From sequence record NC_135728.1: 64,000 nt of DNA; one strand, given 5' to 3'. The notes below the pieces were generated by a model. The model saw nothing but the letters and a program-made list of their open reading frames with translations. It did not search any database and was not told where the DNA came from. A program made the position numbers and the translations under genes. Below are positions 26,893 to 30,764 of this stretch, in pieces (position 1 is the first letter of the stretch; each line of letters starts with the position of its first letter). This DNA comes from a phage.

Positions 26893-26931
26893 AAAACAGT
26901 ATAACAAAATAGCCCTCGTGTTAGAGGGCTA
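26893..26931 (-). terminator. hairpin (tagccctcgtgttagagggcta) with U-rich tail on minus strand; attenuator/terminator between terminase and portal
   Basis: 8-bp stem followed on the minus strand by T-rich sequence. Confidence 0.45.
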
Positions 26932-26980
26932 GTATCTCCGATTAATCTATTCTACCACATCTAATTAAGATTGGCAACAC

Positions 26981-28102
26981 TTAGATAAAACGCTTGAACA
27001 TAGAAGGTGATGAGATTGATGGAATCACACAAGGAAGTGCTACCTCCTCTTTCTCCAGGAAATTAATTGCAGAAGCTACACAGTCAGCCCAGTCGTCTTT
27101 TCTGTTAAATGTTGATCTTTCCCCGTTGAATTTTTCAAGTTCGGTCAGAAATGCTTCCAGAGTATCAGGATGGAAACTGGATTTTACAATCCTCACCATC
27201 CCTTGTTGGGCAAGATTGGCAAAAGGTGAGAACCTTGTCAGTTTAGACTTGTTGGAAGGCATTGGGTCTTCTTCAACCCTGAACCCTTCTGCGAGCAAGG
27301 ATCTGGATGAGGTTAAGAACTCACTCTTACCTGCCTGACCAGGGTCCACAGAGAATACGATTATGCAATCATCACCATCAAACTGCGCCTGTTTCCTGAT
27401 GATCACATCTCGTTCACCAGCCTTTTTACAGAACTTGCCTTCCAGACCTGTGGAATACCTCCCGTCATCCACGTTTTCAGGACAATAATCCCCTGACAGG
27501 TAATAAAAGCCGTCGCTATCTTTACTTACCTTAATACTGGCAGTAAAGTCAGGAAATTTATTGCCAGAAGTTCTCTCGGTTCCTGCCTTATCCCATGCCC
27601 TGCAAGATACTGATCCAAGGGGTACTCTATCGGCATCACGAAGGAAAGATCTTTGAAAATAGTTTGCACCCTCAGGCTTTGCAAACCAGTTACCATGGAG
27701 AAGCTGAGCTTTTTCCAGCTCTGGTAGACCTTCGAGGAAAGCAAGGTATTCTGGGTTGTCTCTCAAACAGACAGGATTATCAAATATTGTTGCGCCTATG
27801 AACGAGAATGACAACGGTCTTGGCTTGATCTCTACACCCAGTCCGTTAACCGTGGTGTATTTCTCTATCAACTCTTCCTTAGAGTCTCCCCAAATAAATT
27901 CACCGTCGCGTCGGATAAAATATCTTTTCTTACCACATTTCTCCGGATCTGGATACCCTTCATCGTCCAACCACCATCTAACCAGTTTGGCAAGCATGTG
28001 TTCTGAATCAGGGTTACAGCTGATAACCATCCTTGATGGATACTTTGACTGAGATCGCAGACGAGACATCAGATAGTCTATCTGCTCCCATTCAAATTGT
28101 GT
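26981..28102 (-). CDS. terminase large subunit, exon 2 (nuclease half); 5' boundary approximate
   Basis: Frame continues upstream of the annotated Met (TQFEWEQIDYL-MSRLRS...); contains MVISCNPD motif; different frame from exon 1, reconciled by removing the intron. Confidence 0.75.
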   Translation of the reverse strand, partial: TQFEWEQIDYLMSRLRSQSKYPSRMVISCNPDSEHMLAKLVRWWLDDEGYPDPEKCGKKRYFIRRDGEFIWGDSKEELIEKYTTVNGLGVEIKPRPLSFSFIGATIFDNPVCLRDNPEYLAFLEGLPELEKAQLLHGNWFAKPEGANYFQRSFLRDADRVPLGSVSCRAWDKAGTERTSGNKFPDFTASIKVSKDSDGFYYLSGDYCPENVDDGRYSTGLEGKFCKKAGERDVIIRKQAQFDGDDCIIVFSVDPGQAGKSEFLTSSRSLLAEGFRVEEDPMPSNKSKLTRFSPFANLAQQGMVRIVKSSFHPDTLEAFLTELEKFNGERSTFNRKDDWADCVASAINFLEKEEVALPCVIPSISSPSMFKRFI

Positions 28103-28421
28103 CGTTTATGTTCGGGCAAGGTCGCTAGTCTTGCCCCGCCATTTTCAGGCAGCTGCATGTCTCCATGCAGACCAGACTATATCTTATAAGCGACAACAAC
28201 CGCTTACCCTCCCGTTTCGAATCGCTTGATTCTACGTCTCTCGACTAGTCGTTGAACGTTCATCCTCTCGGATGCTTCGCTGCGGATTATCTAAATTAAC
28301 ACACTGTTACCCTACCTTCGATCTCTCTTCGAAGCCTCTATCATGTTACCATGACAGGTTGGTGGTGTCAATAATAAAGATTTCCCCGCAATTAGGGAGG
28401 TTTTACGAGAGCTGCAAATTA
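28103..28421 (-). ncRNA. group I self-splicing intron (ORF-less, about 319 nt) interrupting the large terminase gene
   Basis: Minus-strand sense contains the four conserved group I core elements: P AATTGCGGGGAAA (plus 28381-28400 region), Q AATCCGCAGC (28279-28288), R GTTCAACGACTAGTC (28243-28257), S AAGATATAGTCTGG (28172-28185); in-frame stop right after the 5' splice site; intron ends in G. Confidence 0.8.
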
Positions 28422-28847
28422 ACCCTCATCGAAGCAAACCATGGTGTACTCAAGCCCCTGATGGTTAAGCTTATCTTGTACATACTCCATGTGGCAGTAT
28501 TTTACAACAGCTCCCTTTTTGCTTCTATCCCACTTACCAGTGTTCGGATCAAACCGTGGAAAAATGAACTTATGATCCTTCTCTCTGAACTTTGGCTTAA
28601 TGTTTTCAGGCAGATCACTATAAATAGCTACTGCTTTAGGCCATAGTCCACCCTCACCTTCCAACTGTGGGGTTGTTCTTCGGAACATAACCACAGAGCT
28701 GTGGGGGTCATCAATAATTTTAAGTGGCATCAACTGCAAGAGGAACGACTTGCCAGACCCTGCGGCACCTCCGATTACCAAAATATCTGCATCGTTTTCT
28801 AGGATCATCTTCTGCTTTTCAGAACACGGTCCGTAAATCTTAGACAT
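28422..28847 (-). CDS. terminase large subunit, exon 1 (ATPase half)
   Basis: Walker A GGAAGSGKS and Walker B VCFDE; ends at ...VCFDEG followed by an intron-borne stop. Confidence 0.8.
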
Positions 28848-29134
28848 TAACCTCTCTCCTTTGGAAACAGTGTTCTAATATAGTCTTGCAAAATGATCAA
28901 TTTAGCTCTATCATTACTACAAGACAGATTATTATCCCTCATAATGCCAGAATTCACCGCATCTGGCGCACCTTTCTTCAAAGGCATAGCTCTAGCAGGT
29001 GGTTTCATGGCACCTTCTGGGGGTTTAACAATCAACCTTCCTACATCTGGAGTGTCAATCCTATATTCTCTCTCAACGCTGGTTGCACACCCACATAATA
29101 ACAAGCACACAATAAACAGTGTAGCAACTCTCAT
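28847..29134 (-). CDS. o-spanin-like outer-membrane lipoprotein (Rz1-like)
   Basis: Signal peptide with lipobox LLCGC, proline-rich mature region (KPPEGAMKPPARAMP); follows and overlaps by 4 nt the i-spanin-like gene. Confidence 0.6.
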   Translation of the reverse strand: MRVATLFIVCLLLCGCATSVEREYRIDTPDVGRLIVKPPEGAMKPPARAMPLKKGAPDAVNSGIMRDNNLSCSNDRAKLIILQDYIRTLFPKERG

Positions 29135-29529
29135 CGATCCTCCTGATTGATACTCTCATTATAAATATCTATAAGCTGATCAGGGAGTGTTGACTTCTTA
29201 CCTTCAGGTGATTGGAGGTAGATAGTCTGCTTTTCTCTACCTGCCCTCTCAGCTATATTTAATTTATCCTGCAGATCAGAAAGAGATTTTTCAAGGTTTT
29301 TAACCTCCTCTGCGTGGCCCATTTTAATTTTGTCGGCCTGCTTTTGTTGCTGATCAAGGATCCGTTCCCACTTTAACTCTGTTGCTGACACACCCTCTTG
29401 GTAGGCATCATTAAGCTTAGAGTTAAACCAATACACGGCCCCAAGATAAGCTGTACCTATAGCCGCTGCAAAAACTAAACCTTTTATGATCCCTCTATAC
29501 CTACTAAGCCATGTTAAACCTGAAATCAT
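29131..29529 (-). CDS. i-spanin-like protein (Rz-like)
   Basis: N-terminal transmembrane segment followed by a charged coiled-coil-like periplasmic domain; paired with a downstream lipoprotein. Confidence 0.6.
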   Translation of the reverse strand: MISGLTWLSRYRGIIKGLVFAAAIGTAYLGAVYWFNSKLNDAYQEGVSATELKWERILDQQQKQADKIKMGHAEEVKNLEKSLSDLQDKLNIAERAGREKQTIYLQSPEGKKSTLPDQLIDIYNESINQEDR

Positions 29530-29950: not shown

Positions 29951-30027
29951 TGGTCTCCACGGAGTGATTCGAACACTCGACCTCCTGATCCCAAATCAGG
30001 CGCTCTACCAAGCTGAGCTACGCGGAG
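29951..30027 (-). tRNA. tRNA-Pro (anticodon UGG)
   Basis: Manual fold: acceptor CTCCGCG/CGTGGAG, D-arm GCTCAGCTTGGTAGAGC, anticodon loop TTTGGGA, T-loop TTCGAAT, encoded CCA. Confidence 0.8.
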
Positions 30028-30038
30028 TATTTATAATT

Positions 30039-30113
30039 TGGTGGCCCTGGGTGGAATTGAACCACCATCTGGCGATTATGAGTCGCTTGCTTGAACCTTC
30101 CAGCTACAGGGCC
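30039..30113 (-). tRNA. tRNA-Met (anticodon CAU; could alternatively be a lysidine-modified Ile2-type)
   Basis: Manual fold: acceptor GGCCCTG/CAGGGCC, anticodon loop CTCATAA, T-arm GGTGGTTCAATTCCACC, encoded CCA. Confidence 0.75.
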
Positions 30114-30114
30114 A

Positions 30115-30190
30115 TGGTGCTGATGGCAGGACTTGAACCTGCAACCTATTGATTACAAATCAATTGCACTGCCAATTGTGCTACATCAGC
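30115..30190 (-). tRNA. tRNA-Thr (anticodon UGU)
   Basis: Manual fold: acceptor GCTGATG/CATCAGC, anticodon stem ATTGA/TCAAT with loop TTTGTAA, T-arm GCAGGTTCAAGTCCTGC, encoded CCA. Confidence 0.85.
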
Positions 30191-30196
30191 AAAAAG

Positions 30197-30294
30197 GTGC
30201 TAGGCGGTGGAATCGAACCACCTATGTATTCAACGACTACCTCGTCTATTTTCAGGATTAAAAATCCTCGCCCTTGCCAAAGGGCTTACCTAGC
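30197..30294 (-). tRNA. atypical tRNA-like gene (about 98 nt; canonical acceptor and T-arm, aberrant anticodon/variable region, CCA not fully encoded)
   Basis: Acceptor GCTAGGT/GCCTAGC and T-arm GGTGG-TTCGATT-CCACC are canonical; only a 4-bp AGGA/TCCT stem with loop TTTTTAA and a ~30-nt region before the T-arm; positions 8-9 are AA. Confidence 0.4.
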
Positions 30295-30392
30295 TCAGTA
30301 TGTTGACCATGTTGCTAGTCGGCGATGACGACTGTAACATTTGATAATCCGGTTCTGCTTCCGGCTTTCGCTTAATTACAAGGTCAACAATG

Positions 30393-30483
30393 TGGCGGAG
30401 AGTAATGGAATCGAACCATCATCGAGTCATCCTCAATGGGACGGTTTTCAAGACCGCTTGAGCACCATTGCTCCCTACCCTCC
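30393..30483 (-). tRNA. tRNA-Ser (anticodon UGA), class II with long variable arm
   Basis: Manual fold: acceptor GGAGGGT/ACTCTCC, anticodon stem GCGGT/ACCGT with loop CTTGAAA, long variable arm, T-loop TTCGATT, encoded CCA. Confidence 0.75.
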
Positions 30484-30598
30484 TTTATAAATTATACTGA
30501 TAATGACACTGATTTTCGAGCAGTTAGTGACTAGTATAAACGACGATAAATATCAATGCCATTATCTGTATTATTTACGCATCTAAAAAATATAAATT

Positions 30599-30685
30599 TG
30601 GTGGGGAGTGGTGGAGTCGAACCACCCGAGTCGCAATGACAATAGATTTACAGTCTACACCGCTACCTCTACGGGATAACTCCCC
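30599..30685 (-). tRNA. tRNA-Tyr (anticodon GUA), class II
   Basis: Manual fold: acceptor GGGGAGT/ACTCCCC, anticodon stem GTAGA/TCTAT with loop CTGTAAA, T-arm GGTGGTTCGACTCCACC, encoded CCA. Confidence 0.8.
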
Positions 30686-30689
30686 AATT

Positions 30690-30764
30690 TGGCACCCCGT
30701 ACTGGACTCGAACCAGTGTCAACGGCTTAGAAGGCCGCTGCTTTATCCACTAAGCTAACAGGGC
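30690..30764 (-). tRNA. tRNA-Arg (anticodon UCU)
   Basis: Manual fold: D-arm GCTTAGTGGATAAAGC, anticodon stem GCGGC/GCCGT with loop CTTCTAA, T-arm ACTGGTTCGAGTCCAGT, encoded CCA. Confidence 0.8.

Follow-up and report, generated by a model that had tools for sequence, protein, structure and literature searches.

The 319-nt segment at 28103..28421 on the minus strand of the window (the whole 64,000-nt stretch of phage DNA that we analyzed, NC_135728.1) is, judging from its sequence, very probably a td-like group I intron that interrupts terL, the gene for the large terminase subunit, in an rV5-like coliphage of the genus Vequintavirus and that would be removed by two-step, guanosine-initiated transesterification. 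The element is ORF-less and has a subgroup IA architecture, with P7.1 and P7.2 present and P2 absent. It is built as a group I ribozyme, its boundaries can be placed to the nucleotide, and its removal restores a single terL reading frame. The identification rests on a match to Rfam model RF00028, on an explicit model of the core, and on terL alleles of related phages in which the segment is absent.

The RF00028 match ran from 28457 to 28153 (−) and scored 79.4 bits (gathering score, 50; E value, 1.6e-18). It spanned model positions 1 to 253 of 253 and was the sole intron match in the 64-kb window. We also used R1, a 176-position core covariance model that extends from P3 to P9 with the P5 extension trimmed; it scored 212 bits at the intron, its single match in the window. 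The sense strand of the intron holds no ORF and has stop codons in all three frames. On the opposite strand, a 124-aa ORF starting with ATG (28272..28646, +), the one listed ORF over the segment, overlaps the intron and exon 1, and we took it to be spurious since no gene is annotated there in relatives.

The P, Q, R and S elements lie in canonical order on the minus strand. P, AATTGCGGGGAAA (AAUUGCGGGGAAA), occupies 28381..28393 and includes the 5′ strand of P4 (28390-28385), and Q, AATCCGCAGC (AAUCCGCAGC), occupies 28279..28288 and includes the 3′ strand (28286-28281); P4 was paired in the hand model. R, GTTCAACGACTAGTC (GUUCAACGACUAGUC), at 28243..28257, contributes the 5′ strand of P7 (GACUA, 28250-28246), and S, AAGATATAGTCTGG (AAGAUAUAGUCUGG), at 28172..28185, contributes the 3′ strand (UAGUC, 28179-28175). 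The pattern of R followed by S occurred once in the window and in none of 100 shuffled sequences. The two P7 strands are perfectly complementary and form a pseudoknot with P3 (CCUCCC, 28400-28395, with GGGAGG, 28213-28208), a helix placed both by RF00028 and by hand; covariation is uninformative for P7, whose bases belonged to the search pattern with which the relatives were collected.

The remaining helices were placed by hand modeling, in part together with the predicted fold. P1 (28405..28429, −) joins the exon sequence AUGAGGGU (28429-28422) to the guide GCUCUCGU (28412-28405) across a 9-nt loop; all eight of its pairs are standard, with a U28422·G28412 wobble at the 5′ splice site, and the same helix appeared in the unconstrained minimum free energy (MFE) fold. 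P5 and its extension of three hairpins (P5a, P5b and P5c) were located at 28290..28380 (−) by the MFE fold and the hand model. The P6/P6a hairpin (CAUCC GAGA GGAUG; 28256..28280, −) was supported by the fold, the hand model and covariation. P7.1 (GUC GAGA GAC) and P7.2 (GAAUC AAGC GAUUC), both in the hand model and the second also in the fold, lie at 28219..28245 (−), in the interval from P7 to the 3′ strand of P3, and the P8 hairpin (AAGCGG UUGUUG UCGCUU), 18 nt long, lies at 28188..28205 (−). The 3′ part of the intron (28103..28170, −) consists of P9 (28170-28153), P9.1 (28152-28136), P9.2 (28135-28115), the tail GAACAUAAAC and the terminal ωG at 28103.

Every listed helix of this explicit model is made solely of standard pairs. 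The MFE fold recovered P1, P3, P4, the P5 extension, P6a, P7.2, P8, P9 and shortened versions of P9.1 and P9.2, and its energy (z = −5.06) was equaled by none of 100 shuffled sequences. The sequence-only reading had described near-consensus P, Q, R and S elements in this order and had expected that a search with covariance models would find a group I intron, that the RNA would fold into P1 to P9, and that an internal guide would pair with the GAGGGU exon end. All four elements were placed, the RF00028 score exceeded the gathering score, the model extends from P1 to P9.2, and the guide was found in GCUCUCGU.

P2 is absent, because the spacer between P1 and P3 is merely AAAA. We also looked by eye for a P10 helix that would pair the P1 loop (UAAUUUGCA) with the first bases of exon 2 (ACACAAUUU); the best pairing had 3 to 5 pairs and was offset by 3 nt from the 3′ splice site, and we do not claim it. 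Extra hairpins such as P7.1 and P7.2 in the stretch that separates P7 from the 3′ strand of P3 are a hallmark of subgroup IA, as Michel and Westhof reportedly set out in 1990. Since P2 is absent and subgroup IA2 is heterogeneous (PMC11878797), we file the intron as "IA, td-like" and not as strict IA2.

Comparison with related introns supports most of these helices. The R1 search set comprised the window and 84 loci, mostly IMG/VR contigs collected with the R...S pattern, and R1 matched 93 related introns, one of them in the window. Across these 93 relatives, 94.1% of the cells were standard-paired, versus 58.4% after column shuffling and 37 to 43% in slid-partner controls, the first figure being inflated by the fitting of the alignment to the structure of the model. 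In the same fitted alignment, 41 of 43 pairs changed on both sides. Double changes occurred in six of six pairs of P3 (helix 1), and P7.1 and P7.2 (helices 6 and 7) were about 98% paired with every pair doubly changed. Independent of any fitting, the window and phage rV5 differ by a compensatory C·G-to-U·A change in P5b, and P9 and P9.2 show compensatory changes among the window, T4 td, PA7 and Jarilo. Six of the IMG/VR loci (L033, L085, L096, L081, L052 and L051) carry three to seven td-like intron cores within a few kilobases; in L033, seven R1 matches fall between 2206 and 6413.

According to the mechanism that we propose, terL would be transcribed as a single pre-mRNA in which the intron would fold into its P3-P9 core and GCUCUCGU would pair with the last eight bases of exon 1, AUGAGGGU, to give P1. 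An exogenous guanosine held in P7 would attack 3′ of the wobble-paired U28422, and the 3′-OH of exon 1 would then attack after the terminal G28103. These steps would join ...GAG GGU to ACA CAA..., with a predicted ligated junction of ...GATGAGGGT|ACACAATTT..., and a single 515-aa TerL (...VCFDEG-TQFEW...) would be made. We infer that the segment is spliced, and by this chemistry, from general knowledge of group I introns and from the 52 viable phage isolates that depend on terL. Literature searches for splicing experiments on Vequintavirus or on this terL intron found none.

It is unlikely, in our estimate, that the segment is a true group I intron whose removal in vivo needs a protein cofactor from the phage or the host and which fails to self-splice in vitro. 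Such a dependence would be in keeping with the absence of P2 and the weakness of P10, and for some group I introns of phages, splicing occurs in vivo but fails in vitro (PMC11878797), so protein-free self-splicing is not guaranteed. The near-consensus core, its closeness to the self-splicing T4 td intron and the stability of the predicted fold (z = −5.06) nevertheless favor self-splicing.

We next turn from the RNA to the protein that the two exons encode. Exon 1 (28422..28847, −), taken from the ORF list and its translation, encodes the N-terminal part of the ATPase with a Walker A motif (GAAGSGKS) and a Walker B motif (VCFDE, within MVCFDE), and its final codon is GGT. The ORF that holds this half runs over 28419..28847 (−), its product ending in ...MVCFDEG before TAA. 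Exon 2 (26981..28102, −), defined by conceptual splicing and Pfam, encodes the rest of the ATPase domain and the RNaseH-like nuclease domain; its first codons, ACA CAA TTT, read TQF, and the frame is open from 28102 to 26981 (−). The exons are in different frames (28847 mod 3 = 2 versus 28102 mod 3 = 1) across the 319-nt gap. Conceptual splicing produced an ORF of 1,548 nt and 515 aa with the junction ...VCFDEG|TQFEWEQIDYL..., and the length of 1,548 nt is that of the uninterrupted terL of phages MaxTheCat and FV3. In the spliced protein, Pfam found Terminase_6N at residues 25 to 294 and Terminase_6C at residues 394 to 489. The Terminase_6N match is unbroken over the junction at residues 142/143, one residue past the Walker B glutamate. 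A search of spliced TerL against PDB sequences returned no match at an E value of ≤0.01.

The phages MaxTheCat (MZ501094) and bov11CS3 (MT884009) encode residues 1 to 287 of the spliced protein uninterrupted and with 100% identity (tblastn), and the exon 1 protein is 100% identical to the N terminus of their intron-less TerL. Since these sister phages encode the stretch as one, the two halves of TerL are not separate genes. This bears on the very improbable case that the insertion stays unspliced and TerL consists of two polypeptides, translated separately and assembled afterward. There is a precedent in Aeromonas phage Aeh1, whose NrdA is split by a mobE insertion, and nonsplicing splits of this kind are described in PMC7344957; here, an in-frame TAA ends exon 1 directly after GGT, and many depositors, such as those of Pr121LW, have annotated two "terminase" coding sequences (CDSs). 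Exon 2, however, has no start codon at the junction, and its first in-frame ATG, at 28069, would lose TQFEWEQIDYL and has no well-spaced Shine-Dalgarno sequence. The split would also fall one residue past the Walker B DE, inside the single Terminase_6N domain. A full ribozyme core kept with compensatory changes is unexpected for a nonfunctional spacer, and a U at position −1 that is fixed in the intron-carrying alleles alone points to selection for P1 function.

The boundaries of this intron, 28421 and 28103, are fixed by three independent lines of evidence: the intron-less alleles, the group I rules and homology to td. In DNA alignments with MaxTheCat and bov11CS3, the intron is one clean 319-nt block missing from the intron-less alleles. 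The last base of exon 1 is U28422 and the last base of the intron is G28103. The 3′ end of the intron, ...GAACAUAAACG|ACACAA, aligns with that of the T4 td intron, ...GAACAUAAUG|CUACCG, and the terminal ωG at 28103 has the same offset from the conserved GAACAUAA as the final G of td. Shifting both boundaries by 1 nt (GAGGG|...C|GACACAA) would give the same protein, but with G at −1, C at ω and the P1 wobble broken, and we rejected that placement.

From the letters of the window alone, it had been proposed that an ORF-less group I intron splits the large terminase gene, that the ATPase half (Walker A/B, ending ...VCFDEG) and the nuclease half are in different frames separated by about 320 nt without an ORF, and that the segment follows an exon U and ends in G, with boundaries good to a few nucleotides. 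The model and structure, the intron-less alleles and the continuity of the domain bear this proposal out. The frames do differ, across 319 nt, stop codons occur in every sense frame, the flanking bases are U28422 and G28103, and 28103-28421 proved to be exact. Alignment with intron-less homologs, which had been suggested as a way to find the insertion point, placed it at FDEG|TQFEW, and those homologs have one continuous 1,548-nt gene where two normally separate genes would have spoken against an intron.

Upstream of terL, homology to the BASEL phages identified the spanins: an i-spanin at 29131-29529 (−) and an o-spanin at 28847-29134 (−) with the lipobox LLLCGC. The terL start codon shares bases with the stop codon of the o-spanin gene (TAATG). 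A tRNA cluster (29951-30764, −) immediately precedes the spanin and terminase genes, and in it ARAGORN called Pro, Met, Thr, Ser, Tyr and Arg tRNAs as well as an odd 99-nt tRNA with a 4-base anticodon at 30196-30294. Rfam at threshold called only five of the genes in the cluster.

The window shares 97 to 99% identity with rV5-like coliphages (genus Vequintavirus), and we used intron and junction searches to classify terL in 118 related records. About 66 were intron-less, 22 carried the ORF-less intron (319 to 320 nt), and 30 carried an ORF-containing form of 883 nt. In the 883-nt form, a longer and different P8 stem (GAAUGUGUAAUAC...GUAUUUACACAUUC) encloses an ORF for a 196-aa Endonuclease_7 protein (PF02945), whose stop codon lies within the S element. 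The earlier statement that the intron has no homing endonuclease gene thus holds for the copy in the window and does not extend to these 30 records. In phages such as JES2013, DrSchubert and APECc02, which have the ORF variant, the ribozyme is about 98% identical to that of the window outside P8 and sits at the same site with the same flanks, GGT|ACA CAA; the difference is an endonuclease in a long P8, for a total of 883 nt, versus an 18-nt P8 hairpin in the 319-nt intron of the window. Because its P8 differs from the longer stem, the ORF-less form is not a simple deletion scar of the ORF-containing form.

The flanking exon sequences also distinguish the alleles. The five sampled intron-carrying alleles all read GGT|ACA CAA, whereas the eight sampled intron-less alleles read GGC ACG CAG or GGC ACG CAA, the differences all being synonymous. 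The −1 base was accordingly U in every one of the five sampled alleles with the intron and C in every one of the eight without it, and the T at this position in the intron-carrying alleles is what the U·G wobble of P1 requires. The differences at +3 and +6 fit co-conversion or divergence of the homing site. The existence of three alleles in one genus suggests that the intron has spread or persisted by recombination and co-conversion, and the ORF-less copy possibly makes use in trans of the endonuclease of coinfecting relatives.

The ORF-less block recurs, with 96 to 99% identity, in the complete genomes of 22 independent phages, and 30 more records carry the form with the ORF, 52 in total; with terL essential and all core elements intact, this leaves next to no room for a terL pseudogene that holds the decaying remnant of an intron or for a sequencing or assembly artifact, even though an apparent duplication and frameshift close to the site in phage V18 resemble an assembly error. 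In V18 (L015; NC_041937), at about window position 28430, TGGTTTGCT is tandemly duplicated, a G is missing beside the Walker B codons, and terL is given as two CDSs. This irregularity looks like an assembly error or a frameshift and not like an intron. About 18 GenBank records numbered MG0656xx ("Campylobacter phage C2, C15, A12a, A116 ..."), with Campylobacter jejuni labels, are 98 to 99% identical to rV5-like DNA (compared with window positions 26900-28900) and show the same three terL intron alleles. Either the host labels are wrong or the records are contaminated, probably.

The first terL intron of rV5 is the same element as that of the window: it is ORF-less, it has an identical insertion site, and it is 97.5% identical over 319 nt, differing by a few point changes that include the one compensatory pair in P5b. 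The terL gene of rV5 also has a second, downstream intron with an HNH gene, which the window lacks. This second site corresponds to about 27785-27789 (−) of the window, in the codons GGC GCA ACA ATA TTT GAT (GATIFD). The intron found there in rV5 is about 980 nt long and carries an HNH_3 homing endonuclease, and the one in RudolfGeigy is about 270 nt long and ORF-less (RF00028, 95.6 bits at L002:1706-1932). Neither the window nor MaxTheCat has an intron at this site, and the flank reads ACC in RudolfGeigy versus ACA in the window, a synonymous difference.

Outside the genus, the closest relative is an intron that the phiKZ-like jumbo phages PA7, SL2 and U5 carry in the gene for the beta subunit of RNA polymerase (73% identity over intron positions 130 to 316; R1, 118.7 bits). 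In PA7, it lies in a gap of about 320 bp that is flanked by the two RNA polymerase CDSs and in which no gene is annotated. The phiKZ-like intron differs from ours in host gene, phage family and bacterial host. A related intron in PhiPA3 encodes the endonuclease described in "An intron endonuclease facilitates interference competition" (PMC11620839). Pectobacterium phage Jarilo has a related intron with an Endonuclease_7 gene in its DNA polymerase gene.

The T4 td intron is a classic self-splicing phage group I intron. It is about 82% identical to positions 238 to 316 of the window intron, from the S element to near the terminal G, and by BLAST only this 3′ quarter aligns. The two share the P/Q/R/S core, P7.1 and P7.2, and the 3′ end ...GAACAUAAxG|. 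The td intron (subgroup IA2) lies in the thymidylate synthase gene and carries the GIY-YIG gene I-TevI, whereas the window intron lies in terL and is ORF-less. The td intron has P2; the window intron, unlike td, lacks P2 and has a P5 extension. At the gathering threshold, RF00028 gave no match to T4 td, Jarilo or the second intron of rV5, presumably due to the large ORF insertions in these introns, and we compared these three by BLAST and MAFFT.

Introns in terminase genes have been found in several other phage groups. [quoted passage not shown] Splicing has been shown by reverse transcription-PCR for a terL intron of Pectobacterium phage CB7 (PMC7344957) and has also been shown for terminase introns in the Bastillevirinae, in which SIOphi and phiAGATE have group I introns in terL (PMC11878797). 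The terL introns of Bacillus phage phiAGATE and Nitrincola phage 1M3-16 belong to the same family as ours (RF00028, 60 and 64 bits, respectively; R1, 93 bits each). Exon 1 of the Nitrincola phage ends in ...TGRGFG, apparently a Walker A P-loop, and phiAGATE terL is split elsewhere, so that both sites differ from that of the window. More generally, the LL-H, CB7, Bastillevirinae and Nitrincola introns all have insertion sites different from the one reported here. The TerL families of the Nitrincola phage and phiAGATE also differ from that of the window, with no match by tblastn. When we searched the loci fished from IMG/VR with the TerL of the window (tblastn), only L099 and L133 were TerL-like. 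Given this yield and the different sites in Nitrincola phage 1M3-16 and phiAGATE, we see no evidence, L099 and L133 aside, of homing into the Walker B site across genera.

The terL intron itself was already known. The rV5 genome paper (Kropinski et al. 2013, Virol J 10:76) has a section entitled "Introns in terminase" (PMC3606486), in which the introns were deduced from BLASTX and expert inspection alone and in which Shub is named in connection with their location. The rV5 GenBank record (DQ832317) gives terL as a three-piece join, "ORF64ABC," and the records of the BASEL phages also write terL as joins; according to the BASEL paper, the intron boundaries came from comparative annotation (PMC8594841). 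A 2018 paper lists the protein with an Endo VII motif of "Escherichia phage 2 JES-2013" as intron encoded (PMC6083498). The element is therefore not of a new kind, and the new detail is the three-allele picture of the population.

Many deposits have two separate "terminase large subunit" CDSs at this locus, among them Pr121LW (MH752840; L004), naswa, magaca and slur16, and in Mangalyan a "hypothetical protein" is annotated inside the intron. The correct annotation of terL in the window is the join of 28847..28422 and 28102..26981, not two "terminase" genes, and many GenBank relatives are wrong in this respect. Because TerL serves routinely as a marker in phylogenies and as the basis for calling the packaging type, a missplit terL distorts both.

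The three alleles at one site, with their diagnostic flanks, form a natural series that would be handy for studying homing, co-conversion and intron competition in coliphages that are candidates for therapy. One possible, if on balance doubtful, reason for the persistence of the ORF-less intron is that it splits the Walker B target site and may thereby make terL immune to an Endonuclease VII-type enzyme of coinfecting relatives, a defense in interference competition of the kind demonstrated for the related RNA polymerase intron in the phiKZ family, while perhaps still being copied in trans. If this is true, the flank differences between GGT|ACA and GGC ACG would in part stem from an arms race in which the cleavage site is at stake, beyond what the U·G pair of P1 needs.
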